From positions 94,240 to 158,239 of the forward strand of contig JBBDJY010000006.1 in NCBI GenBank assembly GCA_040879645.1: 64,000 nucleotides of DNA. The letters are read 5' to 3'. Source of the stretch: Minisyncoccota bacterium. GTDB taxonomy: Bacteria; Patescibacteriota; Minisyncoccia; Phycocordibacterales; XYD1-FULL-46-19. Shown piece after piece: positions 42,216-63,115 of the stretch. The notes under the pieces were generated by a model. It worked only from the letters and a program-made list of their open reading frames with translations. It was not told the DNA's origin and did not search any database. The translations under genes and the position numbers were made by a program. Every line of letters starts with the position of its first letter. The first letter of the stretch is position 1.

Positions 42216-42293
42216 CAGACCTCCTTTCTCCCCCACTCAATGTCTTCAGTTAATTTACTACCAACCTCTTAATTAGGCAAGGGCGGTTTTATT

Positions 42294-45617: not shown

Positions 45618-45849
45618 GGTTTTTTATCATAAATTAAGTAATTCCTACTTTCTTACTAGTGTAGTGAAAATGTAAGAATAAGTCAAATTTCTAAACTGGT
45701 TACAGAGGTAAATTCCTTATTTCATTTTCTTCGCTTAGCTAGTCAAATAATTTTTGATTCATTGACATTTATAATATCTTTAACCATACTAAAAACAGGT
45801 AAACGGTGCTGATTGTCGGCACCTTGTCAAAAAAAGGAGGAATTGGGTC

Positions 45850-46737: not shown

Positions 46738-46823
46738 CCAATCCTCCATTTCTTGACTGTTCGTTAATTCCCGTTCAATCTCTTAGGATTTGGACGGGAA
46801 TTTTTCTGTAAATAAAAAAACAA

Positions 46824-46857
46824 ACCTGTTCCATTCGCTAAAAGGAATGGAACAGGT
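46824..46857. terminator. 12-bp stem terminator between convergent genes.
   Basis: acctgttccatt...aatggaacaggt flanked by an A-run and a T-run. Confidence 0.75.
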
Positions 46858-46874
46858 CTTTGGAGACAAGATAG

Positions 46875-47258
46875 TCAATTGACCAAAGCGGTCTCTGGCG
46901 TTGACAATTCGTCTGACAATTCGAGACTCTTCGCGTCGAAGATGGTCCACTCCCTAGTGGTCCCGGCTTCGAGATAAACGTCGAAACGGGCGCTCCAGTC
47001 GCCAGTGAAAGACACCACCCGGAGGTCATACCAACCCGGCGGCAATCCGCGGACATCGTAGTAGGAGTTTGGCGCTAGCGTCGCCGGTAACCGATTTGTG
47101 CCCCAAGTCGTGGAAGAAGAAGAGACGACGTTGACCTCTACGAGGTAATGCGAGCTGATGTTTTTGACCCGGAGGGTCGCCGTATAGGGATCTAGTGGAC
47201 AACCGGAGAGACCAACCAGACAGAGAACAATCACCACTAAAAACAAGTATCGAGACAT
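46875..47258 (-). CDS. Small lipoprotein-like secreted protein. The start is the ATG after the cassette's Shine-Dalgarno; the listed ORF starts at a GTG inside that Shine-Dalgarno.
   Basis: MSRYLFLVVIVLCLVGLSGC (lipobox-like), about 55% GC. Confidence 0.55.
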   Translation of the reverse strand: MSRYLFLVVIVLCLVGLSGCPLDPYTATLRVKNISSHYLVEVNVVSSSSTTWGTNRLPATLAPNSYYDVRGLPPGWYDLRVVSFTGDWSARFDVYLEAGTTREWTIFDAKSLELSDELSTPETALVN

Positions 47259-47322
47259 CAGATTCACCTCCTTTCGAAGACCAAGTTTTCTCCGGAATCT
47301 GCTCCGGAAGATTATCTACCCG
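47259..47322 (-). promoter_or_regulatory. Conserved 5' leader cassette, copy A: a -10-like TAGATAAT, a 7-bp hairpin, then AAAACTTGGTCTTCGAAAGGAGGTGA.
   Basis: Shared with the cassettes at 51393-51465 and 61068-61135. Confidence 0.6.
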
Positions 47323-47366
47323 AAGTGTGCTCTGGTGTCGATTTATTGTCAATGGGTAGATAAATT

Positions 47367-48149
47367 TCATTTTATTAAATCATTCCAGAAACTAAGGCGA
47401 TTCTCTTCATAACCATTTTTCCACGAAAGGGGAATAATAAAATCTTTCTCCCATTCCCGATAATCGCCGAAAAAAGTTTTTGCAAATAGGTCTTGATAGT
47501 GCTTCATCTTCTCCTCAAGATTGGAGCTTTGGATATATTTTTGAAAAATTGAGAGAAATTCCGGATCATTTTGCTCAAAATATCTTACGGCCATCTTCTC
47601 ACCCCGCCATGGGATATCGCGGAAAGCGAAGTAGGCAGTAGTAAGTTCCATCACACTGTAAAGTAGACGGAACTCCAGGGCTTTATGGTAGAGCGAATCA
47701 GGGGCCTGATAATAACGAGAATTGGCGATAAAGTTATAATTTATTTTAAGCCAAAAATTTGTTTTCTCGGTTTTCAGAATATTTTGAGAAAGAGGGTTTT
47801 GAACGATCTTGTTTCTAAACATCGTCAATAGGTTGTCGGGATCATATTCAATCTTCCCTTTCATTAACCACTCGGCAAACATTCCCTCAAAATCATTCGC
47901 GGAGACTTCTTGCTTGGTCTGTAATTTATGGATGAAATCAACGTCAAAGAAAAAAATATCAGCAAACCGACCCTCAACCGTGGTATAAACAGACTTGAGA
48001 TCTTCATCATTTTTGTCCAACAAAACAATCAGATCAATGTCGCTTGAAGGATTAAGTTGCGAGGCGGTGGTGCCGGTAGTAAATATACCTCTTACTCGCG
48101 ATGAGGATTTTAATTTCTCCACTAATTTTGTCAGTGATGGATATTTCAT
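47367..48149 (-). CDS. Pol-beta-fold nucleotidyltransferase with a C-terminal helical domain (aminoglycoside/lincosamide nucleotidyltransferase-like).
   Basis: GIFTTGTTASQLNPSSDIDLIVLL nucleotidyltransferase motif, 260 aa. Confidence 0.55.
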   Translation of the reverse strand: MKYPSLTKLVEKLKSSSRVRGIFTTGTTASQLNPSSDIDLIVLLDKNDEDLKSVYTTVEGRFADIFFFDVDFIHKLQTKQEVSANDFEGMFAEWLMKGKIEYDPDNLLTMFRNKIVQNPLSQNILKTEKTNFWLKINYNFIANSRYYQAPDSLYHKALEFRLLYSVMELTTAYFAFRDIPWRGEKMAVRYFEQNDPEFLSIFQKYIQSSNLEEKMKHYQDLFAKTFFGDYREWEKDFIIPLSWKNGYEENRLSFWNDLIK

Positions 48150-48153
48150 AAAA

Positions 48154-48684
48154 TTACAATTTTTTACTCATTCCGATGATAATTTCGCCCTCATCTCCTT
48201 CCTCGCGCATAAACTCCTTGTATCCCAGTCTTTCGTACAGTTTGACCGCATTGATATTTGTTTCTTCAACCCCTAGAGTCACCTCTTTAAATTTGCGAGC
48301 CCGCGCCTCATCAGTGATAATTTTTACCAAATAAGAACCGATCCCTATCCCCCTTGATTCTTGTCGAACTCTAGCGTGATGCAGGTGCGCTTTGGCCTTC
48401 CCATCAGCATAAAACGTCTTGTCCATTCTGAAAACTAATTGAATTGTTCCGACAATCTTTCCCTTCAATCTGGCGCCATAAATGATTCTGTTTCCGACCG
48501 CCGCGTCTCCGATGTCTTTTTTGATGTCGGTTTTTATTTTAATTTTACGATTAGAATCCGCTTCCGGATAGAGTGAAATTATATCCTCCGAGTTGGTTAT
48601 TGTGAAAATCTCCAGATCTTTCATCTTACTTATAACCATAGCAAATGTTATAACGCTAAACAAATCAGGTTTCGATGCCCGCAC
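48154..48684 (-). CDS. GNAT family N-acetyltransferase.
   Basis: QESRGIGIGSYLV (motif A) ... NINAVKLYERLGY, 176 aa. Confidence 0.7.
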   Translation of the reverse strand: MRASKPDLFSVITFAMVISKMKDLEIFTITNSEDIISLYPEADSNRKIKIKTDIKKDIGDAAVGNRIIYGARLKGKIVGTIQLVFRMDKTFYADGKAKAHLHHARVRQESRGIGIGSYLVKIITDEARARKFKEVTLGVEETNINAVKLYERLGYKEFMREEGDEGEIIIGMSKKL

Positions 48685-48716
48685 TTTTCTTGTAGAGATA
48701 GAGAATGCCAGTATTT

Positions 48717-50402
48717 TCAGGCGTTGTTTTTAGGCACGTTTTTAGGTTTGTTCGTAAAGGCGGAATAATCAGCCACGCGAGTCAGTGACCCTTCGGCCAA
48801 GATGTAAGTGGAGTCAAGTTTAGCCCGCTCGAGAAAGTAGCGGTCATGTGAGACAAGAATGACCGTTCCGGTGTAAGTTGACAGGGTCTTTTCCAAGGCA
48901 AAAAGGGCAGCCAAGTCCAGGTGATTGGTCGGTTCATCAAGAATTAATGTATTCACCGACCGAGCGGAGAAGATGGCCAGAAGCAGGCGAGCTCGCTCGC
49001 CGGGACTTAGAGTCCCAACCAATTGCTTGACGCGGCTTTTATCAAAGCCAAACTTGGCCAGTTTGGCATAGGACTCTTGGCGACCCAATTTCGCTTGCTT
49101 CATCACACACTCAAGTAATGACAAATCTCGAGGCAAAGTTTCGTGTTCTTGCATCAAATTACCAACTTTAACGCCGGAACCGAGCTTGACCTCGCCGGCC
49201 AGCGGTGGCAGTTTGCCGGTAATTGTCTTGAGTAGAGTTGACTTGCCCGAACCGTTCAAACCAATGATTCCCAGACGATTGCCGTAGGAAATGTCCAAAG
49301 ATAACGGACCAACACGAAAGCCATCAGGGTAACCGGCAACCACGTCACTCAAAGACAAATGGCGCCGACCGGGGCCGGTTTTTGCCTCAAGCGGAATGGC
49401 AAAATCATCGGACTCAAACGGCTTTTCAATTTTCTCCATCTGGCCAATCCGCTTCTCAATCACTTTGGCGGCCCGGGCCGATTGTCCGGCCCGTTCACGC
49501 TTGAAACCCTTGAGCAGCTTGTCTCCATCGCTCCCCTGCCAGTGTGACCCTTTTTCTGATGATTGGCGTTTTTTCCTAGCGGTTTCGGTTAGGCGCTTAA
49601 CCTCTTTTTGCTGGAGGGTGTATTCGGTCTCTTGCCTGGCATTTTCTTTGGCCAATCTGGCCAAATAATCGCTGTAGGTACCACCAGAGACAATCAGGGT
49701 TTGCTGGCGAGAGTCTAGCCGGAAAATCTTTTTGGTCGTCCGGTCAAGAAATTGCCGATCATGAGAGACGACAATGCAAGTCGCCGAAATTTGCCGGATG
49801 AATTCCTCAAGCCAAATGAGAGCTGGTAAATCAAGATTATTGGTTGGTTCGTCAAGTAGAAGTAAATCAACCCCCCGGAGAAGAACTCCGGCCAAGGCCA
49901 CTTTGCTCTTCTGTCCGCTACTCAAGGCCGTCAACGGCTTATCAATATCGTCCTCGGTTAAACCAAATCCGGAAATGATTGCCTTCAACCTGAAGGTAAA
50001 AGTATAACCATCTAAACGCAAGTACTCTTCGTGTAGCTGATTATACTTTTGGGCCTGATCGGGTTGGTGAAGATCTGGCGACAAGTTCTCCAGTTCCTTT
50101 TCAATCTTGTCGATGCCGAGTAAAGCTCGAAGATGCTCGCCGACCGTTTCCTCTCCGGTCAAGCTCGTGTCTTGGGGCAAATAGCCGAGGCGAAGATCTT
50201 TCGCCAGCTTAATTTCACCACCATCAAGTTCTTCCAGACCGGCAATGATTTTAAGCAAAGTGGTCTTGCCGGACCCATTGTCTCCGACTAGGGCCACCTT
50301 GTCCCCTTCTTCCACCAAGAAAGAAACATCAGCCAACAAAGTCAGTGAGCCGTAGTTCTTGTGGATGTTTTTAGCTTGAATCATGCTCATATCTCCTTCC
50401 AC
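48717..50402 (-). CDS. ABC-F family ATPase (two nucleotide-binding domains, no transmembrane domain; EttA/Uup or ARE type).
   Basis: GDNGSGKTT + LSGGQKSKVALAG, then GLNGSGKST + LSPGERARL, with a charged linker; 561 aa. Confidence 0.85.
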   Translation of the reverse strand: MEGDMSMIQAKNIHKNYGSLTLLADVSFLVEEGDKVALVGDNGSGKTTLLKIIAGLEELDGGEIKLAKDLRLGYLPQDTSLTGEETVGEHLRALLGIDKIEKELENLSPDLHQPDQAQKYNQLHEEYLRLDGYTFTFRLKAIISGFGLTEDDIDKPLTALSSGQKSKVALAGVLLRGVDLLLLDEPTNNLDLPALIWLEEFIRQISATCIVVSHDRQFLDRTTKKIFRLDSRQQTLIVSGGTYSDYLARLAKENARQETEYTLQQKEVKRLTETARKKRQSSEKGSHWQGSDGDKLLKGFKRERAGQSARAAKVIEKRIGQMEKIEKPFESDDFAIPLEAKTGPGRRHLSLSDVVAGYPDGFRVGPLSLDISYGNRLGIIGLNGSGKSTLLKTITGKLPPLAGEVKLGSGVKVGNLMQEHETLPRDLSLLECVMKQAKLGRQESYAKLAKFGFDKSRVKQLVGTLSPGERARLLLAIFSARSVNTLILDEPTNHLDLAALFALEKTLSTYTGTVILVSHDRYFLERAKLDSTYILAEGSLTRVADYSAFTNKPKNVPKNNA

Positions 50403-51031
50403 TTAACCGCAATAAGATTATTATCTTCTTTCCAAGGCTTAGACATTGCTTTGATAAAAGTTTTTCGACCAACTTTCCGATTTTTAATTGGTGGCAATCC
50501 CGGATCATGGAAAGTAATATTATTATCTTCTATTGCCGTGATTAGAACCAAATGACTGGCATATCCTTTCTTTCTTTCCAAAACGTAAGGGTTAATTGAT
50601 ATCATAACCAAAAAGCCGTCATAGAAATACCTCTCAATATCACTGATAGAAATTTTTTTATTTATTAATTTAATTAAGGGATTCTTGATCAATTTCCGGG
50701 CTTGTATCTGTTCATTATCTAAATCAGAATATTTTTCTTGAACTTCAAAAACCTCTTTGCTCCAAATTTGGGCTAAATATTTTTTTCCTTGGCGAACAAA
50801 CTTTTTATAGTCGAGATTTTCAATATTAACCACCTCAAATCCCAGATTGGCTAAATATAGTAATCCTTGACTCTGCCAAGTCCATTGTTTCGGCTTATGA
50901 CCAATCAGGGGATCTAATATGTGATAGGGATAATTTTTATTCGGCAAATAATATTTTAAAACCATCCGCCAGCAAGCTGGCAAGCAACGAGTGTCATCTT
51001 TAGTATTTTTGTAAAAAGGAATATTAAGCAT
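50387..51031 (-). CDS. Standalone peptidase C39-like (papain-fold, bacteriocin-processing type) domain protein. The start is probably MLNIPFY; the listed ORF runs to 51076 through a terminator.
   Basis: DTRCLPACWRMVLKYY (catalytic Cys motif) and SHLVLITAIEDNNITFHDPG (His motif). Confidence 0.5.
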   Translation of the reverse strand: MLNIPFYKNTKDDTRCLPACWRMVLKYYLPNKNYPYHILDPLIGHKPKQWTWQSQGLLYLANLGFEVVNIENLDYKKFVRQGKKYLAQIWSKEVFEVQEKYSDLDNEQIQARKLIKNPLIKLINKKISISDIERYFYDGFLVMISINPYVLERKKGYASHLVLITAIEDNNITFHDPGLPPIKNRKVGRKTFIKAMSKPWKEDNNLIAVKWKEI

Positions 51032-51063
51032 AATTTTTATTAGGATAACACATAAATAAAATA

Positions 51064-51095
51064 GGCGGCAGGTCATGACCTGCCGCCAAGTGTCT
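51064..51095 (-). terminator. Rho-independent terminator after the Gly-rich micro-ORF.
   Basis: ggcggcaggtcatgacctgccgcc plus a T-rich run on the minus strand. Confidence 0.75.
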
Positions 51096-51112
51096 GACAG
51101 GGATTACTTCTT

Positions 51113-51181
51113 CCTGCCACCACCACCTCCGCCGCAACCACCACCGTTGTGATTACCGCCGTTGCCGGACATACTAACACC
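51113..51181 (-). CDS. 22-aa Gly-rich, Cys-containing micro-ORF, MSGNGGNHNGGGCGGGGGGRKK, with a strong Shine-Dalgarno. An in-frame 28-aa form starts at MRGGVS.
   Basis: GAGAGGAGGTGTTAGT ATG. Terminator immediately downstream. It is co-transcribed with the 61-aa ORF from the leader cassette. Confidence 0.35.
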
Positions 51182-51206
51182 TCCTCTCATATGGATTTTT
51201 TGCCTG

Positions 51207-51392
51207 CTACTTCTCAAGTGGCAAACGAATGCCCAAGGGTGAAAAGGAAGGATAACTAGTATTATATCTCTTCCTCCTATCCTTACTCCTCCTCCGCTCA
51301 GGGATTTTTGGGTCAGGATAGTTGAACCAAGGATTTTGTTGGCTTGAGGTTGAGTCAGAGGAAAATCCTGGCACTAGTTCTTCCGGGATCAT
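51207..51392 (-). CDS. 61-aa hypothetical peptide MIPEELVPGFSSDSTSSQQNPWFNYPDPKIPERRRSKDRRKRYNTSYPSFSPLGIRLPLEK.
   Basis: The ATG lies 9 nt after the cassette's AGGAGGTGA. The listed ORF starts at a GTG in that Shine-Dalgarno. Confidence 0.4.
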   Translation of the reverse strand: MIPEELVPGFSSDSTSSQQNPWFNYPDPKIPERRRSKDRRKRYNTSYPSFSPLGIRLPLEK

Positions 51393-51465
51393 AATGATGT
51401 TCTCACCTCCTTTCAAAGATCAGTTCTTCCCGGAACCCATTTTCCGGGAAATCTAATATCAGTCT
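51393..51465 (-). promoter_or_regulatory. Conserved 5' leader cassette, copy B: TATTAGAT, a 9-bp hairpin TTCCCGGAA/TTCCGGGAA, then ...CTTTGAAAGGAGGTGA.
   Basis: Seen directly; compare copies A and C. Confidence 0.6.
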
Positions 51466-51476
51466 AACCCGATGTC

Positions 51477-51500
51477 TTTTGTTGGCAATAGCCGACAAAC
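51477..51500. promoter_or_regulatory. 20-bp imperfect palindrome TTGTTGGCAATAGCCGACAA (operator-like), copy B.
   Basis: Identical core at 59810-59829 and 61149-61168. Confidence 0.5.
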
Positions 51501-51592
51501 TGAAATAAAAATCAAGCCAAAATCCCCTTTATTTAAAATGTATTTTCTCCTCCGCAAAAAATTTCTCTGATTCTGTCGGCCGGTGACAACAC

Positions 51593-53269
51593 TTACTCTC
51601 CTGCTTGCTTTATTTCCTCTCGATTAGCCGAGGCGGCATCAGGTAATTCAAGGGTAAAAGTGGAGCCCTGGTCCTTGCCGGGCGAATTGGCGATAATTTG
51701 TCCTTGATGGGCTTCAATGATTTGTTTGGCGACAAACATTCCCAGACCGGTACCTTTGACATTTATCTTCCCCTCATCATCAGCCCGAACAAATTTTTGA
51801 AACAGTTTTTCAATTTCCTCCGCTTCCAAACCGACACCGGTGTCGGTGACATCAATCCTCACCTTTCCATCACCGGACTTAACCGCTACCTTTACCGAAC
51901 CGGCCGGCGTGTACTTAATCGCATTGTCGATAACATTGGAAATTACCTGACCGATTTTACCACTGTCGCCATAAACCAAGTACTCACCCTTGTCAGCCGT
52001 AAAGGATAATTTGATTTTCTGATTCTTGGCTGTCGCTTCGTATTCTTTAAGAACTTGTTCGGTTAAGTTCTTAAGATCAAATTCAGTCAATTCATATTTC
52101 ATCTTGCCCAATTCAATTCGCGTGATATTAAGAAAATCTTCAATCACCCGGACCAATTTCTGGCTGGATTCAAATACAATATCAACCTTTTCCTTTATTT
52201 TTTTCGGTACTTTTCCAAATGACCCTTCCAAAATCATTGATGAATACCCCTTGATGGCGGTCAACGGTGCCCGCAACTGATGCGAAGCGATAGAAACAAA
52301 TTCGGTCTTTTGTTTGTCCAATTCTTTCAATTTTTCATTAGCCCCAAACAAAGCTTTATTGACCTCTCTTAATTCTCCAGCCAATTTTTCAATGTGCTCT
52401 CTTTGTTTTATTTCCCGACGAACACTACGAATTAAATAAATGCCGAATATAAGTATTGATACAAAAATTAACGAATCCACCGCTCTTTCTATGATAGTGT
52501 TTGATCTAAATATTTGAGAAAAAATTATAATCCACAAAACTATTATAACTGCCTCAGTCACTATTATTTTAATATTAAAAAGTTCATATTTAGTAATTGC
52601 ATAGGCGGTTATCCCCATAAAAATTAGTGCATAAATAGAAATCAGGGGTAAAAATATTCCATTTCCGTAGATTATTATTGGAAGTAAGATTGTCCCAATA
52701 AGCAATAATAGCATCAGTGATATTCCGATTAAAATTAAAATGGATTGATATTGTCTGACTCCACTGTACTCTATTGTTTTTTTAAATAGAAAATATATGG
52801 CCAAGACACTAAACAAGGTAGATATAATCGCAAATGGAATTATTCCTAATCCAGCAATGGGATTTCCGCTATTATCTGTGGTATGGGTAAAGGCATAAGG
52901 AGATATATTTATAATTGCCATTACCGCAGTAAGAAGTAAAATTAAAACAAAATTACGTTGCGACATCATTATTTTATGACTTGGTATTGTATGGGCAAAT
53001 AGAAGGAACAAGGCGCTCATTAATGCCGCGAACATTATGCTAAGACGATGAAAGAAAATAGCTAATGATTCTATTTCTGGTAGTCCGGCTATATATCCTG
53101 ACCATAACCAAAACAATATAAAAATACTTAGCAATGAAAAAATTATATTGGTAGCACTTTTTTTATTACTGTAATAAATAGTAAAAATCAGTACGATTGA
53201 TCCTATCGACACTCCAGCAAGAAAAAATAACTCTAATTCACTTACTATATTAGAAAAAATTTCAATCAT
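51593..53269 (-). CDS. Sensor histidine kinase with a 7-transmembrane N-terminal domain; no response regulator is adjacent.
   Basis: HisKA region VSIASHQLRAPLTAIKGY, HATPase_c region DTGVGLEAEE...GTGLGMFVAKQII, 558 aa. Confidence 0.85.
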   Translation of the reverse strand: MIEIFSNIVSELELFFLAGVSIGSIVLIFTIYYSNKKSATNIIFSLLSIFILFWLWSGYIAGLPEIESLAIFFHRLSIMFAALMSALFLLFAHTIPSHKIMMSQRNFVLILLLTAVMAIINISPYAFTHTTDNSGNPIAGLGIIPFAIISTLFSVLAIYFLFKKTIEYSGVRQYQSILILIGISLMLLLLIGTILLPIIIYGNGIFLPLISIYALIFMGITAYAITKYELFNIKIIVTEAVIIVLWIIIFSQIFRSNTIIERAVDSLIFVSILIFGIYLIRSVRREIKQREHIEKLAGELREVNKALFGANEKLKELDKQKTEFVSIASHQLRAPLTAIKGYSSMILEGSFGKVPKKIKEKVDIVFESSQKLVRVIEDFLNITRIELGKMKYELTEFDLKNLTEQVLKEYEATAKNQKIKLSFTADKGEYLVYGDSGKIGQVISNVIDNAIKYTPAGSVKVAVKSGDGKVRIDVTDTGVGLEAEEIEKLFQKFVRADDEGKINVKGTGLGMFVAKQIIEAHQGQIIANSPGKDQGSTFTLELPDAASANREEIKQAGE

Positions 53270-54330
53270 CTGTAATTTATTTTAGGTAATAACTTTGTCG
53301 ATTTAGCTGAAGGCTCTCCGTCATATCCTATGCGCAGGATCGTTGTGATAATCCCATTTAATCTACAAATTGACTCTATCCCATGATAAGCCGTCTTAAT
53401 TTCATTATTGTCTTTTTCCGTAAATACCTGTGAAGCGGTTTTTTCTTCAACGGCTTGGTGAAAGAATAATAACCCACTGTTTAATTGTACTGACAAATTA
53501 TTTTTTGTTGCCGCTAACCAAATTGATTGGACTTGTCTCCCAACGTCAATAAAAGATTTACTATCTTTTAACTTAGCGCTAATAATACACAGCCCGGCAC
53601 AAGCGGAATGTGTCTCCTTATTTTCTGCGGCAATTTTTTTAGCGATGCCTAGTTTAAGCGCCAAAGACATAATTGGCCAATATTTAAGTAATCGCATCAA
53701 TAGTCTTTTGCCGAAGCTTAATTCCAGTGTATGGATTAATAGTCCCCCACCTCTTAACTTTTCTTCATTTTTATTCCAAACCAATTCTTTAAAAAAAAGT
53801 CTGTTTAAAAATTTATTTTCAAACATTATTCTTTCACCGACTGATAAATATTTAGCGATTTCGTCTATACTCGTTCGATTATAGATAAAATTAACATTTA
53901 CTTGATTATTAAAATTTATATATTTTTTTAAATCTGAAACAACGTTTTCCGTGATTGCCTCTTTGGCGTAAGGTTTTCGATTAGAGGCCCGCTTATGCAA
54001 ATAACTGTATAAAGGGCTTAATTTAACCGAGTCATCGTCTATTAACTCTATCGAAGCCGTTAATTTGGGCTCATTTTGATTAGGAAATATTTTTACAATA
54101 GCTTTTAAGTTGTGCTTGGTCGAAGCAATGGCAATATTTTCAATCAAGGCCCCATGAGCGATATAGGTTCCTCGATTTCGGACGTTTAGAACCGCGTGAT
54201 CTTTTTCCGGCTGAGCAAATATATTAATGGTGTTATCTTTTATTTCAAAGTACCAAGGCTGAGAATTTCCTCCCGATGGAGCATCGTAACTATCAGCCAG
54301 TATTTTTTCTATTATCACCTGATTAACCAT
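53266..54330 (-). CDS. Nitroreductase-family flavoprotein, enlarged (354 aa; tandem or SagB-like dehydrogenase type).
   Basis: PSGGNSQPWYF signature near the N-terminus. The length exceeds simple nitroreductases of about 200 aa. Confidence 0.6.
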   Translation of the reverse strand: MVNQVIIEKILADSYDAPSGGNSQPWYFEIKDNTINIFAQPEKDHAVLNVRNRGTYIAHGALIENIAIASTKHNLKAIVKIFPNQNEPKLTASIELIDDDSVKLSPLYSYLHKRASNRKPYAKEAITENVVSDLKKYINFNNQVNVNFIYNRTSIDEIAKYLSVGERIMFENKFLNRLFFKELVWNKNEEKLRGGGLLIHTLELSFGKRLLMRLLKYWPIMSLALKLGIAKKIAAENKETHSACAGLCIISAKLKDSKSFIDVGRQVQSIWLAATKNNLSVQLNSGLLFFHQAVEEKTASQVFTEKDNNEIKTAYHGIESICRLNGIITTILRIGYDGEPSAKSTKLLPKINYR

Positions 54331-54337
54331 AGTTTTA

Positions 54338-55378
54338 TTATATCAAATTTTCATTAAAACCACTCTCTTTAATCCCGGTCGCCTTTATTATTTTAGCCAC
54401 CCCTTTTTGCCAAGTGGCAATCGGGGTGATTTTAAGTCGAGGAATATCCGGCACTTGTTCATCAACCATATATCTAAATTCTCCGGCGGTCAGAAGAGAT
54501 CCAATTAGTAATCCTTCGGCGGTTAACAGGTTGGAAAATTTGGTTAAATCCTCGATGTTTTCTATCTTTTCAGTTTTCAGATAGTGTTGTAAAGTTTTTG
54601 TGGTTATTTGCCCGGAGACATACAACTTTTTTGTAAGCTCTATCAATTTGTCCATATCTAACCAGTAGGTTGGGAATTTATAGGAATAAAAAGATCGGTC
54701 AACATTTAATTTTTTATTGGGAGGCAGGCCTAAAGTTTCTTCGGCGGCAATAAAAGGCATGGCGGTTACTTTCCCATTTTTATTCAGGGCAATCACTTTA
54801 TTTTGGATATCACCCCTGACGATAGCGGTAACATATTCAAAGGTATTGATGTCTTCAGAATAATCAGCTATAAATTGCGCCTGCATCAGGGCGAAACATA
54901 TAGCGGTAAATTTATGTTTAGTTGAGTTTTTTTTGTTTATAAAACACGGATGAACCCCACACATTCTGGAGTCAGAATACACTTTAGACCATAGATTCTT
55001 ATTTGACCAATTCATTTTGTCGCACAGTAACTTAGGTACCGGCTGATTTTTATATTTATACAATTCTATTTCTCCAATCCCGGTAAATAATCCATCCCCG
55101 GGAACCATGCGCACACTCAACCATTCTTCGGTTTCTTTACCGTACCGGGCCCGGGCAAGATAGATAACAGCCTTATCGTCATATTTATCAAATAATTCCC
55201 GTGCCCCATATTTTTTGTATGAACCTCTGGCCAAGGCCAGGATTTTATACAGGCTTTTATCTAACCACTTTTTGTTATTTAAGTCTTTGGCACGGTAAAT
55301 CTCAAATTCTGCTTCAGCTGTAGAATAAACAGCTAAGGGTTTGGGTAATTTAAGCAGTGTCTCTGATATATTATTCAT
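54338..55378 (-). CDS. Hypothetical protein (346 aa) with a possible acyltransferase-like fold (very weak LuxI/FeeM/FemX-like impression).
   Basis: No clear motif was found. It is tightly packed inside the operon. Confidence 0.4.
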   Translation of the reverse strand: MNNISETLLKLPKPLAVYSTAEAEFEIYRAKDLNNKKWLDKSLYKILALARGSYKKYGARELFDKYDDKAVIYLARARYGKETEEWLSVRMVPGDGLFTGIGEIELYKYKNQPVPKLLCDKMNWSNKNLWSKVYSDSRMCGVHPCFINKKNSTKHKFTAICFALMQAQFIADYSEDINTFEYVTAIVRGDIQNKVIALNKNGKVTAMPFIAAEETLGLPPNKKLNVDRSFYSYKFPTYWLDMDKLIELTKKLYVSGQITTKTLQHYLKTEKIENIEDLTKFSNLLTAEGLLIGSLLTAGEFRYMVDEQVPDIPRLKITPIATWQKGVAKIIKATGIKESGFNENLI

Positions 55379-55383
55379 TGTAA

Positions 55384-56505
55384 TTAAATGTCCAATAGAT
55401 TGTTTAATTGCTTAAGGGTTTTTTGCCTTTGTTTTATGGCGTCTTTTTTTTGAAAATCAGAATCTAAAGTTGAAATCGGACTAAAGACATATTTGCCAGA
55501 CTTAAGATGATCAGTTGTTAAAATCATTTTGACAGTCATTGCTAATATTGATCCGGACATTACCGCCGCAATCCCTAATTGAGGTACATGGTTAATCGTT
55601 TGACCAATTGCTATGAGTGACTTTTGTAGATCTTCTTCCATAAATTCTGTTCCGATAATTTTAGAAGAAAGTTTACTCCAGGCTTTCGGGTCTTTATGGC
55701 GCAATAATGCCAGCCCGATATTTTTTGGTAAACTTACTCGGCCGTGGAAAATCGGGTATTTAGGGTCTCTATCATATCTTTCGATGTCTAAGATAATACC
55801 ATTGCCATTATCGGTCGCCATTAAAACGGGGATTTTCTTTTGTCTTGCTTTTTGCCTTATCCTCACTTTCATCATCAAATTATCCATCTCATCAATTAAG
55901 ATGTCGACGGCCGATAAAAAATTATCAATATTTTTCTCAGTTACTCCTTGGCGGAATATCTTTATGTCAGCGTAGGGGTTATTTTGATAGATATATTCGG
56001 CTGTTCTTTCTGCTTTATTCTGGCCAATATCGAGAAAATCAAAATGGAGCCGGTTTAGGTTGGTGCCAGAAATCTTGTCTCCATCCGCGATTTTCAAGTG
56101 TTTGGCAATACCGGACATCGAAAGAACCATGGCGGCATGACTACCAACGCTTAATCCGGCAATGGCAATTGTCGCATTATATAATTTATCTTGAGCAATA
56201 CTTGATACGACTTCTTTATTGCGAGCGGTTCTTAATTCCTGATGAAGGTCTTCCGGTAAATAGGAGACTAAAGTTTTGTTCCAAGGAAAATAAAACCAAG
56301 TTCCAGGCTTTGTTTGTTTTTTATTGTTTGGAAGATTTTTTATGAATTGTTTAAATTTGGGATCGTTTTTCGATTTTACTTTCTTTAGCGGATTTCTGAC
56401 TTGATAAAGCTCATAGATCAAATCGTCATATTTATCAATTTTTTTAGATATTTCATGAGAATTCTCAAATTTTTTTAGATTTAAAACTCGAATTGGTTTT
56501 TTCAT
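55384..56505 (-). CDS. ThiF/MoeB/E1-like adenylyltransferase with an N-terminal extension of about 105 aa.
   Basis: Rossmann/E1 signature IAIAGLSVGSHAAMVL...IADGDKISGTNLNRL, 373 aa. Confidence 0.7.
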   Translation of the reverse strand: MKKPIRVLNLKKFENSHEISKKIDKYDDLIYELYQVRNPLKKVKSKNDPKFKQFIKNLPNNKKQTKPGTWFYFPWNKTLVSYLPEDLHQELRTARNKEVVSSIAQDKLYNATIAIAGLSVGSHAAMVLSMSGIAKHLKIADGDKISGTNLNRLHFDFLDIGQNKAERTAEYIYQNNPYADIKIFRQGVTEKNIDNFLSAVDILIDEMDNLMMKVRIRQKARQKKIPVLMATDNGNGIILDIERYDRDPKYPIFHGRVSLPKNIGLALLRHKDPKAWSKLSSKIIGTEFMEEDLQKSLIAIGQTINHVPQLGIAAVMSGSILAMTVKMILTTDHLKSGKYVFSPISTLDSDFQKKDAIKQRQKTLKQLNNLLDI

Positions 56506-56515
56506 GGATCCTTAA

Positions 56516-57625
56516 CTACTTTCTTAAATCGGCAATATATTTGTTTTTATAAGAACTTGTTTTGGATGCATCTATGTTTTTTTGGAAAATAATTTTTTTA
56601 TTTTTTAAAAAATTGAGAGTTTCGTTTATTTCGGCTTCTTTCTTCTTTACTTTATTATCAATAAAAATTTCAACCAGATCTCTATCATTGTTGGTTTTAA
56701 TATAAACCATAAATTGGTCGGTAAATTTAAGTAACGAATCTATAATTTTTGTTTTAGATGTCAGAATACCCTGGACTTTAATTAAATCATCACTCCGGTT
56801 TATTATTTCAAATTCCTTCAACGATCCATTCCGGTTATATTTTACATTATCCAAAATATCCCCCGTTTTATATCGGATTATCGGTGTGGCCAGATTATAT
56901 AAATCAGTGACAACTAAATGTTTTAAGTTTTTAATTTCTATCGCTTCAACATATATACCATTGCTTATGACGGTTATTTTTTGAGGATCATCTTTTTTTG
57001 ATACCCCAATCGCCGGGCACTCGGTTAGGCCAAAGTGATTAATGACTTCAATCCCATACCTTTTAAATGTATCGGTATAGCTGTCTAAAAGTCTCTCGCC
57101 GGCGACAATTATCTTTTTGGGGAAATATCTTGATTTTTTTTCTTGTGCCAACAAGTTAAGTAAACTGATGGCATAACTGGGGACCGAAAGCCAAACATTT
57201 GGCCTGATCTTTTTTATTGCTTCTATCATCTTATCTTTAGGATAAGTGTTAGGGGCGCCTAGCGGTATTACCGAAATGTCCATTTTTTGGCAGGCCTTTT
57301 CGTACATACTCCCCGGCACATAATTACCATAGGCAAAAAGGTTTAAGACGATATCGTCTTTTGCTACTCCTGATTTTTTAAGCGATTTAATGGCCCGACT
57401 GATAAAGTGATGAACCGCTTGTTTTGAGTAAAAAACATATAAAGGGAGCCCGGTTGACCCGCTGGTAACCCGTAACTCTAAAAAAGATTTAGGCGTCTTA
57501 AATTTTTTAATTACGTTTTTATTACTGACTGGTACCTCGCTCCAGGTTTTTATTTTTGAGCCCCGATGAAAATTACGTAATATGTCTTGTTGTCGTATTT
57601 TTAGCGATGATTTGTTGTTTTTCAT
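56516..57625 (-). CDS. Adenylate-forming enzyme of the PaaK / coenzyme F390 synthetase / CapK-like family (ANL superfamily).
   Basis: VTSGSTGLPLYVFYS (A3-like), HFGLTECP (A5-like) and YKTGDIL (A8-like). Confidence 0.65.
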   Translation of the reverse strand: MKNNKSSLKIRQQDILRNFHRGSKIKTWSEVPVSNKNVIKKFKTPKSFLELRVTSGSTGLPLYVFYSKQAVHHFISRAIKSLKKSGVAKDDIVLNLFAYGNYVPGSMYEKACQKMDISVIPLGAPNTYPKDKMIEAIKKIRPNVWLSVPSYAISLLNLLAQEKKSRYFPKKIIVAGERLLDSYTDTFKRYGIEVINHFGLTECPAIGVSKKDDPQKITVISNGIYVEAIEIKNLKHLVVTDLYNLATPIIRYKTGDILDNVKYNRNGSLKEFEIINRSDDLIKVQGILTSKTKIIDSLLKFTDQFMVYIKTNNDRDLVEIFIDNKVKKKEAEINETLNFLKNKKIIFQKNIDASKTSSYKNKYIADLRK

Positions 57626-57636
57626 AGAGGAAGAAT

Positions 57637-58044
57637 TTAAACTACATAAAATTTTTCTTCAACCTCGGCCCTTATCTCGCCTCTTATTTTATATTTTCGA
57701 GAATAATTTGTTTTTGAGATAAGAATTCTTTTTAAATTTTTATTTTGAAAAATTTTACCAAATGGTTCATTGGGATTATGAGTGGCCCAATCATTAACAA
57801 ATTTGTTTTTTTTAAGTTTGTTAGTGGCTTGGCATAGGATTTTATCATTTTTTAAAAAGGCAATTTCTCGAAAGATAAAATCTTCGGTTATTTTTTGTTT
57901 TAATAGTTTGAACTCGACATCAGGAATATTTTTTTCAATATATAAAGTTGTTGATAAGGTAATATCATTTAATAATTCGAAAAACCACGGTGCCTCTTTT
58001 TTATTCATTCCAGCAAAAAAGCGATGCAAAAAAATAGCTTTCAT
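57637..58044 (-). CDS. Hypothetical 135-aa protein.
   Basis: ORF in the operon. It is preceded by a 19-aa micro-ORF (58063-58122, MEKYLIKKSYLDMTLLGEK) with an AAAGGTGG Shine-Dalgarno. Confidence 0.4.
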   Translation of the reverse strand: MKAIFLHRFFAGMNKKEAPWFFELLNDITLSTTLYIEKNIPDVEFKLLKQKITEDFIFREIAFLKNDKILCQATNKLKKNKFVNDWATHNPNEPFGKIFQNKNLKRILISKTNYSRKYKIRGEIRAEVEEKFYVV

Positions 58045-58247
58045 TATTTTATAGATTAAATTTTACTTTTCGCCAAGTAAAGTCATATCCAAATAGGACT
58101 TTTTAATCAAGTATTTTTCCATTCTTTCCACCTTTTAATAATATGACATTTTTTATCATACCACGGTTTAATTTATAAAGAAAGATTGATCAATTAAACT
58201 TAAATCCAAAAACTGTTTTTTATTTAACAATTAAAACCGAGATATCA

Positions 58248-59399
58248 TCAGGTCTCTTTTCCGATAGCTTGACTGATGTTGTGATATCCGTCTTGTTGTA
58301 ATAATTTAACCAAACCTTGGTTAATCTGGCTAATTGTTTGTGGTCCGTTAAAAATCATACCGGTAATCATTTGCAAAAGAGAAGCACCGGCTTTTATTTT
58401 TTTATAGGCATCAGTGGCATTAAATATCCCACCGACTCCGATGATGATAAATCTATCCCCGGCTTTTTTATAGAGATAAGAGATTTGCTGATTGGCTAAA
58501 TCTTCGACGGCTTTTCCCGATAGCCCGCCATTTTCCGCTGGCAATGTTTCCTTAATTTTTGCTTGGATGTTTTTATTGGTCTTATCTTTAACTAAATTGG
58601 AACAAATAAAACCACTGATGTTATACTCTTTCCCCAATTCAATAATTTCATCTAATTTGTTTGCCGGCAAATTATCCGGTGGCAATTTTATAAAAATCGG
58701 TTTTGACCAAGTGGCTATCGGAGAATGTTCTGTGGCCAGGGCCGTAAGTAGTTTTTTGAGAGAAGATGGATTGGCAAAAGGTTCTCCGCCAAAAGTATTC
58801 GGGCAACTGATATTGATAGTATAATAATCGCCAACCTTGGCTGCCAAAAAATAACGGTAAGCCGACAGATAATCGGCAACGCCGGCATCGGTCTCGATTG
58901 TCTTTTTGCTATTGGTTTTGGCTAAACTAACACCGACCGGAAAAGCAAATTTTTTGACCTTAAGGCGATGGCTGATAACTTTTGCCCCGTCATTTTTAAG
59001 GCCATAGTAAACCAGTAAACTTTTAGATTTTGGTAAACGCCAAAGACGAGGTTTGGGATTTCCTTCGCAAGGTTCACCGGTGACCGAACCACCTTCCATA
59101 AAACCAAAACCAACGAAGGGTAAAATATCTGCCAATTCTATATTTTTATCAAAACCGGCCGATAAGCCAACCGGGTTTTTAAATTTGATCCCCAAAATAT
59201 TTTGTTCCAGTGTCGGATGTGAATATCCGAAACATAATCTCACTATGAATCTGGTGATTTGGAATTGGCCCAGAAATTTACCAATTTCATTAAATCTATC
59301 GTGAACCTCTTCCGGATTATGTCGAAATAAAATTGGCTTTAACAAAAAACGATACTTCCAGGCAATTATAGTATTTCTAAATTTTATTAATGTTTCCAT
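58248..59399 (-). CDS. pyrD: Dihydroorotate dehydrogenase, class 2 (quinone-type) fold.
   Basis: FKNPVGLSAGFDKN, GFGFMEGGSVTGEPCEGNPKPRLWRL, INISCPNT, GGLSGKA, IIGVGGI...AGASLLQ align with the recalled E. coli PyrD. Confidence 0.85.
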   Translation of the reverse strand: METLIKFRNTIIAWKYRFLLKPILFRHNPEEVHDRFNEIGKFLGQFQITRFIVRLCFGYSHPTLEQNILGIKFKNPVGLSAGFDKNIELADILPFVGFGFMEGGSVTGEPCEGNPKPRLWRLPKSKSLLVYYGLKNDGAKVISHRLKVKKFAFPVGVSLAKTNSKKTIETDAGVADYLSAYRYFLAAKVGDYYTINISCPNTFGGEPFANPSSLKKLLTALATEHSPIATWSKPIFIKLPPDNLPANKLDEIIELGKEYNISGFICSNLVKDKTNKNIQAKIKETLPAENGGLSGKAVEDLANQQISYLYKKAGDRFIIIGVGGIFNATDAYKKIKAGASLLQMITGMIFNGPQTISQINQGLVKLLQQDGYHNISQAIGKET

Positions 59400-59520
59400 C
59401 TATTGGTGCACCTTATTAATTTGAACTGTAGCACATTTTAAAAAGAAAAGTAAAATATTAAAATTAGTCTCCCGAGGCCAAAAAACCACTCCATTTTTAT
59501 GGTTCTTAAGACAAGTCAAA

Positions 59521-59545
59521 AAAACGCCTGTTTAGGCGAGGATTT
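59521..59545 (-). terminator. Small hairpin plus T-run after the GreA-C-like gene.
   Basis: cgcctaaacaggcg followed by ttttttt on the minus strand. Confidence 0.5.
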
Positions 59546-59783
59546 TTTCAACTTTGATTACCACTTGGCGATCTCGAATCACTCCTGGTTTTTCTTCACC
59601 CGCCTGCATTTCAAGCAGAAGTGAAGCCAAGGGAGCATCGCTCGCAATTTTACCTTCGGCGATATCGGTTTGGCCAAGGCCGACAATGGTCCAAGTTTGG
59701 GACTGACCGTTAACCGTGACGGCTATTCGGTTGCCAATCTGGACTTTTGGCGCTTTTTGTTCATGGATTTCTTTGGTTTCCAT
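59532..59783 (-). CDS. GreA/GreB C-terminal (FKBP-like) domain-only protein of 84 aa. The start was moved to METKEIH; the listed TTG start lies inside the operator palindrome.
   Basis: RIAVTVNGQSQTWTIVG..ADIAEGKIASDAPLASLLLEMQAGEE resembles the GreA C-terminal domain. Confidence 0.45.
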   Translation of the reverse strand: METKEIHEQKAPKVQIGNRIAVTVNGQSQTWTIVGLGQTDIAEGKIASDAPLASLLLEMQAGEEKPGVIRDRQVVIKVEKILA

Positions 59784-59807
59784 TAAGGTGATAATAGGCC
59801 CCCGGCC

Positions 59808-59915
59808 AATTGTTGGCAATAGCCGACAAAATGACTTTGATTTTAGTCAAAAATATCCTTGGTTTGCAATCTTTGCCGGCTAAGAGAGAGAATTTCACCG
59901 GTTTTGTTGGGGCTG
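59808..59915. repeat. Repeated regulatory module of about 110 bp, copy D. It contains the palindrome TTGTTGGCAATAGCCGACAA and a TTGACT box.
   Basis: 64 nt are identical to 61147-61209, followed by a similar tail (..ccgrttttgttgggg..). Confidence 0.8.
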
Positions 59916-59936
59916 GATGACAAATCAAGACAATTT

Positions 59937-60485
59937 TTATTTTATATATAGAAAATGTAAAATATGCCAATTTTTGATCTTGTCCTGCCTGGTTAATCCC
60001 TGACCAATATCTTCTGAAGAAAAATAAGGCGGAATGGATAACAATGAGAGTGATTCATCCCGCGAATAAAATGACATTTTTCCTCTTCTTTCCGTCACCC
60101 AGCCATCATTAGGGCCAAATAAAGTAAAATAAAGAAAACCGGATTCGTCCAATGACCGGAAGGCCGTTTTAATTATTCGCGCAATCTCTTGTTTATCGGT
60201 GATAAAAGGTAAAACATTAGCCATTATGATGCCGTCATATTTCTGATTAAAAACAAAATCCTGAATGTTTTTATTTTCAATTCGCCAATAACCATCCTCT
60301 GCTATTTCTTTAAAATTTTTTTGGGCTTGAATCAGCGCTCCCTCGTCTACATCTACTAAAGTTACCTGATATCCGTATTTTAGAAAATCCATTGCTTGCC
60401 GACCATCACCGCCACCCAGGTCAATTAATTGACCGTCAGCTTTTAATAACTTCTCATTTTTTAATTTTTTAAATAAAGGAATCAT
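59937..60485 (-). CDS. Class I SAM-dependent methyltransferase (TehB-like).
   Basis: LIDLGGGDGRQA (motif I), VTLVDVDE, 182 aa. Confidence 0.7.
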   Translation of the reverse strand: MIPLFKKLKNEKLLKADGQLIDLGGGDGRQAMDFLKYGYQVTLVDVDEGALIQAQKNFKEIAEDGYWRIENKNIQDFVFNQKYDGIIMANVLPFITDKQEIARIIKTAFRSLDESGFLYFTLFGPNDGWVTERRGKMSFYSRDESLSLLSIPPYFSSEDIGQGLTRQDKIKNWHILHFLYIK

Positions 60486-60587
60486 AAAATTATTTTAATA
60501 TTTATATTAATTTTAAAACATTAACAAAAAAATCGCGCAATTACCACAGTAACTGCGCGATCCAAGTCTTGGTCACAGAATAGGTAA

Positions 60588-61067
60588 TCAGGTGCAATTG
60601 ACAGTGCCATTGCAATCGTAGTCAGGGGAGCAATCTAACCCACAGCCAACTCGCCCAGATATAGCTCCTTCCTTCGCCCATCCCCAATTGTCAGAGATGA
60701 GAACAGGATCAAGATGTTTCTTGACAGCCTTAATGGTCCGAAGGATACAATCACGGTCTGATACCGAGTCACGTTCTGTCTTAGGAACGTGGTGAATGAA
60801 AACACCAAATTCCCTCTGACAAAATTCTGCGTAGTCTCGCGTGAATAAAATGAAAGAATGCCACCCCTCATCAATAATTGAAGGCGGGGCAATGCTCTCA
60901 TTTTCTTGCTGAGTCAGCCACAGAAATGTTAAGGTATCCCTGAACAATTCCTCGGCTTCTTCCATTGGAAGGCAGAGGTTCCGTGAAAGACGGCTCACTA
61001 CTCCATGGTTATCGTAGTGAAGAACGTCTTCAAGAGAAGCCTTGTTCTCTGTTTGTTGCAAAGTCAT
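60588..61067 (-). CDS. Hypothetical protein with a DUF1399/GRDP-like motif and a Cys-rich C-terminal tail. The start is the ATG after the cassette's Shine-Dalgarno.
   Basis: IIDEGWHSFILFTRDYAEFCQREFG fits a W-H...L....Y...C...[FY]-G pattern, recalled from memory. The tail reads GCGLDCSPDYDCNGTVNCT. Codon usage is more GC-rich than the neighbours. Confidence 0.5.
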   Translation of the reverse strand: MTLQQTENKASLEDVLHYDNHGVVSRLSRNLCLPMEEAEELFRDTLTFLWLTQQENESIAPPSIIDEGWHSFILFTRDYAEFCQREFGVFIHHVPKTERDSVSDRDCILRTIKAVKKHLDPVLISDNWGWAKEGAISGRVGCGLDCSPDYDCNGTVNCT

Positions 61068-61135
61068 ATAATCACCTCCTTTCAAAGACCAAGTTTTTCT
61101 TTGGACCTATTTCCAAAGAATCTAATATCACCTTA
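61068..61135 (-). promoter_or_regulatory. Conserved 5' leader cassette, copy C: TATTAGAT, a 7-bp hairpin CTTTGGA/TCCAAAG, then AAAAACTTGGTCTTTGAAAGGAGGTGA.
   Basis: Seen directly. Confidence 0.6.
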
Positions 61136-61146
61136 CTGAAAAAAAG

Positions 61147-61255
61147 AATTGTTGGCAATAGCCGACAAAATGACTTTGATTTTAGTCAAAAATATCCTTG
61201 GTTTGCAATATCTTTCGATTTCAGGTGGAAATTTTGCCGATTTTGTTGGGGAGAT
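61147..61255. repeat. Repeated regulatory module of about 110 bp, copy C (palindrome at 61149-61168), lying between divergent genes.
   Basis: See copy D. Confidence 0.8.
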
Positions 61256-63045: not shown

Positions 63046-63115
63046 GCCGCCACCCAGGTCAATCAATTGACCGTCAGCTTTTAATAACTTCTCATTTTTT
63101 AAATAAAGGAATCAT
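63046..63115. repeat. Duplicated fragment of about 70 bp, copying the 5' end and start region of the methyltransferase gene at 60409-60490.
   Basis: gccgccacccaggtcaat(c/t)aattgaccgtcagcttttaataacttctcatttttt...aaataaaggaatcat. Confidence 0.8.

Follow-up and report, generated by a model that had tools for sequence, protein, structure and literature searches.

Why should three unrelated genes of one bacterium begin behind nearly the same leader? This question is raised by a 64-kb stretch of DNA from a Minisyncoccota bacterium (contig JBBDJY010000006.1, 64,000 nucleotides (nt); the whole stretch is referred to here as the window). The three genes, all on the minus strand, encode a predicted lipoprotein (site 1), a protein of 61 amino acids (aa; site 2) and a protein with a Cys-rich tail (site 3), and each is preceded by a hairpin (HP1) and a near-invariant tract of 25-26 nt ending in AGGAGGTGA. 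On balance, it is probable that each site is a complete small expression unit, built around a single promoter-leader module that is used repeatedly and is of a kind with the leaders of ompA and aprE. The module, about 110 nt in size, has a promoter, HP1, a linker, the tract and an ATG, leading into a small gene and an intrinsic terminator, and it probably makes its messages long-lived and well translated.

The tract stands out clearly from the rest of the window. A search with CTTTGAAAGGAGGTGA, allowing up to two mismatches, finds 3 matches against 0.04 expected, and this number was reached in none of 100 shuffled sequences. These statistics bear out the claim from which the analysis started, that the three genes share a leader tract and a hairpin. 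The consensus of the tract is UGRUCUUYGAAAGGAGGUGA, and it is preceded by an A-rich linker of 3-5 nt. The ATG follows GGTGA at a distance of 5 nt in site 1, 10 nt in site 2 and 4 nt in site 3, a slightly wider range than the 4-9 nt after the Shine-Dalgarno sequence given in the original prediction. That these downstream ATGs are the true starts, as had been proposed, agrees with the NCBI gene models of 159 aa and 127 aa. Both of these products, the 159 aa of site 3 and the 127 aa of site 1, match hypothetical proteins from one metagenome-assembled genome of Candidatus Paceibacterota with 100% identity. The three products have no similarity to each other in BLASTP comparisons.

Further copies of the module are found outside the window. 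The pattern AACT-N(1-2)-GRTCTTYGAAAGGAGGTGA was scanned for exact matches, with no term for a hairpin, in one genome per GTDB species and in the JGI metagenomes; it needs 1-2 bases between AACT and GR, which places variants of the site 2 type outside it. The GTDB scan gave one match (L001), in a metagenome-assembled genome labeled Candidatus Saccharibacteria, where about 0.14 would be expected by chance (for uniform base composition, with 21 fixed and 2 two-fold positions). The JGI scan gave one sequence, present on two contigs (L002 and L003). A hairpin of 8-10 base pairs (bp) and of new sequence directly abuts AAA(A)CTTGG in both cases, with the arms UGCUAAUCG...CGGUUAGCA in L001 and UCUUCGAG...CUCGAGGG in L002. 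In the window, the ends of hairpins this large have a density of about 0.0037 positions per nt, which puts the chance of one being placed right before the tract at about 0.02 for each of the two sequences. Both also have promoters that resemble those of sigma-70 (TTGACA, 18 nt and TATACT in L001; TGGACA, 16 nt and TAGACT in L002).

Within the window, a covariance model built on sites 2 and 3 recognizes the three sites (74.5, 71.6 and 40.6 bits) and no others, the next best scoring 11 bits. Among the fetched loci it recognizes L001 at 44.4 bits, L002 at 40.1 bits and, at 39.4 bits, a further copy, L018b. The latter precedes an open reading frame (ORF) of 59 aa, and the same contig holds an orthologue of the site 1 lipoprotein with 71% identity. 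L018b and L002 have promoters that share about 90% identity, and both promoters align with the 20-nt promoter block of the window (see below), its -35 and its -10 at fixed spacing. Altogether, six full copies from four sources (the window, L001, L002/L003 and L018) are located in front of six unrelated small ORFs of 59-159 aa. An all-against-all BLASTP comparison of seven products gave no E-value below 0.4, and terminator-like hairpins are present behind most of the six ORFs. The module had been described as portable, and its position in front of six unrelated genes supports this.

Two more leaders, those of orthologues of the window genes, are diverged from the full copies. In L017, which holds an orthologue of the Cys-tail protein (53% identity), a promoter with TTGACA, 17 nt and TAGTAT is followed by a 7-bp hairpin (UGCUGGU...ACCAGCA) and then by AAAUCUACACAGAAAGGAGGUGA. 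The leader of the lipoprotein orthologue on the L018 contig (L018a) has TTGACC, 17 nt and TATCTT, a hairpin of 5-6 bp and then AAAUCGAUCCUCAGAAAGGGGGUGA. In both, promoter, hairpin, A-run and extended Shine-Dalgarno sequence thus retain their arrangement, while the 8-13 nt ahead of the site drift. In more distant relatives (L023, L025, L027 and L028, with CsgG-like orthologues of 56-67% identity), no copy was found in the roughly 64 kb searched, and therefore the full module seems to be limited to a narrow clade. L022, a Logan assembly of this organism, gave the window again and nothing more. Nine stretches of viral contigs with GRTCTTYGAAAGGAGGTGA were left uncounted because their number is about that expected by chance, from a rough estimate of the collection size; eight of them belong to one phage group, and none has an adjoining hairpin. 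A separate observation concerns L001, where GGCTATTGCCAAC occurs inside the 95-aa cassette gene (3875-3887, plus strand). Its 13 nt are the core of the 20-nt block of the window, which may be a chance occurrence.

HP1 differs in sequence from copy to copy, and it is the pairing that is retained. The hairpins of sites 2 and 3 are equal in size (24 nt), and four of their nine pairs are replaced on both sides. Over the six full copies, in an alignment fitted to the structure by the covariance model, 98% of the cells are paired and both sides have changed in 7 of the 9 pairs. The observed score for pairing and covariation was reached in none of 500 shuffles, and sliding the partners by 1-3 columns reduced the pairing to 53-68%. 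Conserved pairing with free sequence is one of the features expected of a 5′ stem-loop stabilizer. The identity between copies, taken over all pairs, is 20-25 of 25 positions for the tract and 4-13 of 23 for the hairpin, which shows that sequence is constrained in the former and only pairing in the latter. Moreover, in none of the eight hairpins does the antisense strand fold better than the sense strand (with sums of -64.7 and -76.5 kcal/mol, respectively), and G-U pairs are present. The G-U pairs and the strand bias favor an RNA on the strand of the gene over a DNA palindrome. Covariation, G-U pairs and strand bias together uphold the proposal that the hairpin is a structure selected at the RNA level. 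The HP1 loops have no consistent complementarity to the tract, as judged by eye, that would indicate a pseudoknot.

The tract ends in a Shine-Dalgarno sequence of unusual strength. Its last 12 nt, GAAAGGAGGUGA, are a perfect complement of the canonical 3′ tail of 16S ribosomal RNA, and GAAAGGAGGTGA is present in all six full copies, the complementarity being counted against that canonical tail. AGGAGG occurs 12 times and GGAGGTG 6 times in the 64 kb. Among the 61 ORFs with a length of 120 aa or more, for each of which the start was chosen to maximize the match, only three have a complementarity of at least 8 nt to AGAAAGGAGGTGATC: the longer two of the cassette genes, with 12 and 13 nt, and a CsgG-like gene, with 8 nt. 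Sites of 12-13 nt are hence not the generic context of genes in this window, and the concern stated along with the original prediction, that the motif could be just such a context, does not hold.

A further rare strong Shine-Dalgarno sequence, GAGAAAGGAGGTCTGATG (42213-42240, minus strand), precedes a small ORF downstream of a 594-aa gene, with no cassette hairpin. The leader of the CsgG-like lipoprotein gene (45762-45850, plus strand) combines a TTGACA promoter and a hairpin (45805-45823) with an A-run and with GGAGG. This hairpin is still present in L023 (9890-10003), and it covaries between the window gene and the L018 orthologue (2780-2860, minus strand), where both sides have changed in two cases. 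This leader is analogous, and not homologous, to the cassette.

Upstream of HP1, the promoter region is homologous across genomes, with the spacing from -35 to -10 fixed in the alignment. A conserved block of about 20 nt contains the -35 element (TTGMCA), from which a spacer of 16-17 nt leads to a -10 element of the TAGACT type. In sites 2 and 3 this block is the identical 20-mer TTGTCGGCTATTGCCAACAA. The aligned -10 lies about 15 nt upstream of the TAGATAAT/TATTAGAT box that had been taken as the -10. In all three window sites the seventh base downstream of the predicted -10 is the A of this box (TAGAT), and the box is for this reason more likely the start region; the assignment as a -10 is not retained, and the box is probably where transcription begins. 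The distance from the predicted start to HP1 would be about 3-8 nt in the three window sites, in L002 and in L018b; it would be about 9 nt in L001 and about 20 nt in the diverged leader of L017.

A third copy of the 20-mer is part of a fourth promoter block, which has neither HP1 nor the tract. An ATG (position 59783) is found only 7 nt past its -10, and the gene that starts there (59532-59783, minus strand) encodes an 83-aa protein consisting solely of the C-terminal domain of GreA/GreB. Its position relative to the promoter makes a leaderless mRNA probable for this gene. The 20-mers of the fourth block and of site 3 are included in a longer upstream repeat of 105 nt, in which 62 nt are identical between these two copies (59808-59912 and 61147-61251). 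The motif GCCRACAAAA occurs about three times per promoter region in this repeat, once inverted, and there is a small palindrome, TGACT-N8-AGTCA. The motif may be a site for a transcription factor.

In addition to HP1, a second hairpin (HP2) can be formed by the tract itself. Its first half can pair with GGAGGU (RUCUUY-GAAA-GGAGGU, with a GAAA loop), which would mask the Shine-Dalgarno sequence. HP2 was overlooked in the original prediction, as was the conserved promoter block. HP2 is predicted in seven of the eight leaders, and we rate it as likely. The two variable positions of HP2 swap only pairing bases (G-U to A-U, and U-G to C-G), and in L018a the change of GGAGG to GGGGG is matched by a change of the opposite arm from UCUUC to UCCUC, a compensatory replacement of U-A by C-G. 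Of the energies computed for 10, 25 and 37 °C, those at 37 °C range from -1.1 to -6.6 kcal/mol, and those at 10 °C from -5.8 to -12 kcal/mol. In some copies HP2 is outside the minimum-energy fold of the full leader.

From this anatomy we infer a transcription start, a stabilization of the message, a level of translation and a possible regulation by HP2, as follows. The sigma-70-type promoter would give a transcript from the A of the TAGAT box. HP1, with its 7-10 bp near the 5′ end of the mRNA, would shield the message against decay that depends on the 5′ end (by enzymes such as RppH, RNase J or RNase E). A Shine-Dalgarno sequence of this strength, which most genes of the genome do not have, would recruit ribosomes by forming a 12-nt duplex with the 16S tail ...UCACCUCCUUUC, and the bound ribosomes would also protect the message. 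HP2 may set or condition access to this site. Translation would then begin at the start codon 4-10 nt past the tract, in a short, unrelated and monocistronic gene that is closed by an intrinsic terminator. Two papers (PMC3997798, PMC5737220) describe 5′ hairpins and strong ribosome-binding sites as mRNA stabilizers, in ompA, papA, aprE, STAB-SD and hbs.

Table 1. Features of the three cassette sites and of the related upstream blocks in the window.
Feature	Position	Strand	Details
Site 1, predicted promoter	47324-47352	-	-35 TTGACA (47347-47352), 17-nt spacer, weak -10 CACACT (47324-47329)
Site 1, predicted transcription start	near A47317	-	Within TAGAT box (47314-47318); placed by alignment with the other copies
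Site 1, HP1	47290-47309	-	UUCCGGAG-CAGA-UUCCGGAG; 8 bp, including 2 G-U pairs
Site 1, linker and conserved tract	47264-47289	-	AAAACTTGGTCTTCGAAAGGAGGTGA
Site 1, candidate HP2	47266-47281	-	GUCUUC-GAAA-GGAGGU; predicted fold
Site 1, gene	46875-47258	-	127-aa predicted lipoprotein, ATG at 47258; P0014 100% identical over 127 aa
Site 1, terminator-like hairpin and T run	46822-46859	-	Closes the unit; like an intrinsic terminator
Site 2, promoter	51461-51498	-	20-mer TTGTCGGCTATTGCCAACAA (51479-51498), -35 TTGCCA (51483-51488), 16-nt spacer, -10 TAGACT (51461-51466)
Site 2, predicted transcription start	near A51454	-	Placed by promoter alignment
Site 2, HP1	51427-51450	-	UUCCCGGAA-AAUGGG-UUCCGGGAA; 9 bp
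Site 2, tract	51403-51428	-	AAGAACTGATCTTTGAAAGGAGGTGA
Site 2, candidate HP2	51405-51420	-	AUCUUU-GAAA-GGAGGU; predicted fold
Site 2, unit	51064-51392	-	61-aa ORF (51207-51392), 22-aa Gly-rich ORF (51104-51172), terminator (51064-51087)
Site 3, promoter	61130-61168	-	20-mer (61149-61168), -35 TTGCCA (61153-61158), 17-nt spacer, -10 TAAGGT (61130-61135)
Site 3, predicted transcription start	near A61123	-	Placed by promoter alignment
Site 3, HP1	61097-61120	-	UUCUUUGGA-AAUAGG-UCCAAAGAA; 9 bp
Site 3, tract	61072-61097	-	AAAACTTGGTCTTTGAAAGGAGGTGA
Site 3, candidate HP2	61074-61089	-	GUCUUU-GAAA-GGAGGU; predicted fold
Site 3, gene	60588-61067	-	159-aa UCP032817-like protein (PF27765, family match), Cys-rich C-terminal tail
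Site 3, terminator-like hairpin	60530-60563	-	Closes the unit
Fourth promoter-block copy	59791-59829	-	20-mer (59810-59829), TTGCCA, 17 nt, TATTAT; no HP1, no tract
Upstream 105-nt repeat	61147-61251	-	85% identity to 59808-59912, 61% to 51477-51581

Several points weigh against a stabilizing promoter-leader module. The -10 elements of sites 1 and 3 (CACACT and TAAGGT) are weak and fall under the threshold of a promoter scan that did pick up the promoter of site 2. If the -10 were instead the box of the original prediction, or GATATT in sites 2 and 3, transcription would start inside the 5′ arm of HP1 and the hairpin would be shortened. The covariation figures come from only six sequences, and since this alignment is small and was fitted to the structure, they lean towards structure. 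Folds of the whole leaders are no more stable than those of shuffled sequences (z from +1.05 to -1.98). HP2 is weak at 37 °C and is missing from L017, and the predicted pairing partners of the Shine-Dalgarno sequence vary among the copies. Finally, the anti-Shine-Dalgarno motif is reported for only 48% of Parcubacteria 16S genes (PMC9297842). The perfect complementarity of the tract to the canonical tail over 12 nt argues, at the level of sequence, that the tail is present in this organism.

The strict conservation of UGRUCUUY, 8 nt located upstream of the Shine-Dalgarno sequence and as strongly conserved as that sequence itself, would be explained by pairing to an invariant partner. It could indicate a translational switch, in which HP2 keeps the Shine-Dalgarno sequence shut until temperature or a trans-acting factor opens it, the genes forming a regulon of small proteins. 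The pairing-only substitutions at the variable positions of HP2 and the compensatory change in L018a are consistent with such a switch, and so is the temperature dependence of the predicted stability, with at least half of the HP2 pairs being G-U. Strong Shine-Dalgarno sites are moreover limited to a handful of genes, and there is a precedent in Bacteroidia for the selective use of rare strong sites (PMC9976891, PMC7797042). However, the minimum-energy folds of some copies do not contain HP2, L017 lacks it, its support comes from a single compensatory event, and no candidate regulator was identified. We therefore regard a switch as possible, if doubtful; it is also compatible with a stabilizing leader rather than exclusive of it. 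Rather unlikely, in our estimate, is a broader scheme in which the tract is the address label of a selective translation regime, with the hairpin-shut site of 12-13 nt reserving a handful of small-protein genes for a particular ribosome state or condition. Such a regime, if true, would follow a logic like the bS21/anti-Shine-Dalgarno occlusion of Bacteroidia, and is undescribed in the Candidate Phyla Radiation (CPR).

Three other explanations are disfavored by the strand asymmetry, by the free sequence of the hairpin, by a constant location at gene starts and by a mini-ORF that is lost in orthologues. The tract can be read as an upstream ORF of six codons, (T/C/A)TG GTC TTT GAA AGG AGG TGA (MVFERR-stop), with a stop codon that overlaps the Shine-Dalgarno sequence, so that it might act through leader-peptide control or translational coupling. 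In the six copies it opens with TTG, CTG or, in L018b, ATG; beyond this codon there are two substitutions, one replacing Val by Ile and one synonymous at Phe. The NTG codon carries little weight, because any base followed by TG gives a nominal start, and HP2 explains the same substitutions equally well. This ORF also has no ribosome-binding site of its own, begins 4-6 nt past a stable hairpin, and retains neither frame nor start in L018a and L017, where the hairpin layout stays, all of which makes it very unlikely. The likeness of the tract to the RF2 (prfB) frameshift site, through CUU UGA, is judged coincidental, there being no Shine-Dalgarno-like element upstream. That the copies are functionless remnants of a miniature mobile element, or of a local segmental duplication, would fit their location within 14 kb, the 62 identical nt upstream of two genes and the differing genomic contexts in other contigs. 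It is highly improbable, though, as neither terminal inverted repeats nor target duplications nor a transposase was observed, all copies have the same orientation, and the tract is a ribosome-binding site 4-10 nt from a start codon. The alternation of conserved and random-level blocks, with pairing kept, indicates selection and not recent copying. The same pairing could belong to a DNA palindrome serving as the operator of a dimeric regulator over the start; HP1 adjoins or overlaps the predicted start, an outer TTC...GAA recurs in sites 2 and 3 and partly in L018b, and a histidine kinase gene is nearby. Yet the palindrome has a different sequence in every copy, even inside one genome, and its stem and loop vary in length. 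G-T pairs are tolerated only on the sense strand, with weaker antisense folds, and the predicted start precedes the hairpin by about 9 to 20 nt in L001 and L017. An operator is the least credible of the explanations considered here, and a reused promoter-leader module continues to account best for the anatomy.

The genes behind the leaders and their neighbors have features of their own. Pfam gave no firm match for the 127-aa lipoprotein of site 1. In the unit of site 2, the 22-aa Gly-rich ORF MSGNGGNHNGGGCGGGGGGRKK (51104-51172, minus strand) has its own strong Shine-Dalgarno sequence, GAGAGGAGGTG, and a strong terminator behind it, and is located directly upstream of genes for a C39-like peptidase and an ABC-F-type ATPase. 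The PF27765 family, to which the site 3 product belongs, has a core motif, DEGWHxFILFTRDYAxFCxxxFGxFIHHVP, that is near-invariant across the family (P0002-P0008), and the variable Cys-rich C-terminal tail is a trait of the family as a whole. A methyltransferase gene (59937-60485) is the neighbor of the Cys-tail gene and is retained as such in L017 and L015. Its 5′ end is duplicated about 2.6 kb away (60409-60485 against 63047-63115), with 56 nt at 98% identity and an adjoining 25 nt at 76% identity.

Between sites 2 and 3, a ThiF-family gene (53266-54330, minus strand) and an Acg-type gene resembling flavin mononucleotide nitroreductases (55384-56505, minus strand) each match one half of the Rv1355c model. 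The pair looks like a split fusion of the Rv1355c type, with a 346-aa ORF without a family match in between. A cluster for a ribosomally synthesized and post-translationally modified peptide, or bacteriocin, was considered for this neighborhood, and is weakened by the likeness of this pair to a split Rv1355c and by pyrD, which encodes a genuine quinone-dependent dihydroorotate dehydrogenase. Elsewhere in the window, a palindromic short repeat based on GAGGTTAAACCTC occurs, in part in tandem, at 10549-10592, 12401-12506 and 22513-22561.

Experimental knowledge of promoters, leaders and translation signals in the CPR is nearly nil. The module is a compact, conserved promoter-leader and a candidate expression part, a marker for a set of small and probably abundant proteins, and a handle on the selective use of Shine-Dalgarno sequences by these ribosomes. 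If it does nothing but stabilize mRNA, it would be an ordinary solution in an unusual lineage. The background poor in Shine-Dalgarno sequences and the unexplained strict conservation of UGRUCUUY add to its interest.

Among known systems, no tRNA or other family of Rfam release 15 is matched in the 64 kb at the gathering thresholds, and the matches up to an E-value of 10 are at chance level. The only sub-threshold overlap with the module is Plastid-rpl20, with 27 bits against a threshold of 53 (E = 2.5). A riboswitch would have a conserved ligand core, whereas the stem and loop of HP1 are free here and the conserved parts are the Shine-Dalgarno sequence and its masking arm. A leader-peptide attenuator is not indicated either, as the NTG codon is preceded by no ribosome-binding site and both frame and start are lost in L018a and L017.

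HP2, as predicted, resembles the fourU RNA thermometers, with a U-rich arm that would pair weakly with the Shine-Dalgarno sequence, G-U pairs included, and a predicted stability that depends on temperature. In contrast to those thermometers, the genes downstream are not heat-shock or virulence genes, and one orthologue is without HP2. The genomes of Bacteroidia are largely free of Shine-Dalgarno sequences except for a very few genes with an extended site, and rpsU is autoregulated through ribosomes that lack bS21 (PMC9976891, PMC7797042). The present genome is likewise poor in Shine-Dalgarno sequences with very few extended sites, in a different lineage, however, and at genes for small secreted or unknown proteins instead of rpsU.

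Putative mobile promoters are defined by at least 80% identity over 50-100 nt upstream of genes (Matus-Garcia, Nijveen and van Passel 2012, PMC3488235). As in those cases, similar upstream regions are found here in front of non-homologous genes, both within a genome and across genera. The full modules are only 44-74% identical in pairs over about 100 nt, however, which is under the 80% cut-off, and the upstream block shared by site 3 and the fourth promoter copy (85% over 105 nt) is the sole part that exceeds it. Unlike in the mobile promoters, the conservation of the module is a mosaic of functional blocks.

The STAB-SD element of Bacillus thuringiensis cryIIIA is similar in that the module also has GAAAGGAGG, complementary to the 3′ end of 16S ribosomal RNA, in a 5′ leader. 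STAB-SD is said to lie far upstream of the start codon, where it does not start translation, and to stabilize the mRNA through binding of the 30S subunit, as has reportedly been proposed. The site in the module is not well upstream, being 4-10 nt from the ATG, and since it is a working ribosome-binding site the module is not a STAB-SD in the strict sense.

By analogy, the module would work like the leaders of ompA and papA in E. coli and aprE in Bacillus subtilis, which combine a 5′-proximal hairpin, a single-stranded stretch and a good ribosome-binding site. In these leaders, too, structure matters rather than sequence, and in aprE both the stem-loop and ribosome binding reportedly contribute. 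The 5′-proximity of HP1 is a prediction in the present case, and the leaders have no sequence homology to the module. What sets the module apart from them is that its hairpin is coupled to a near-invariant tract of 20 nt, and that the promoter and leader are reused together in several CPR genomes.

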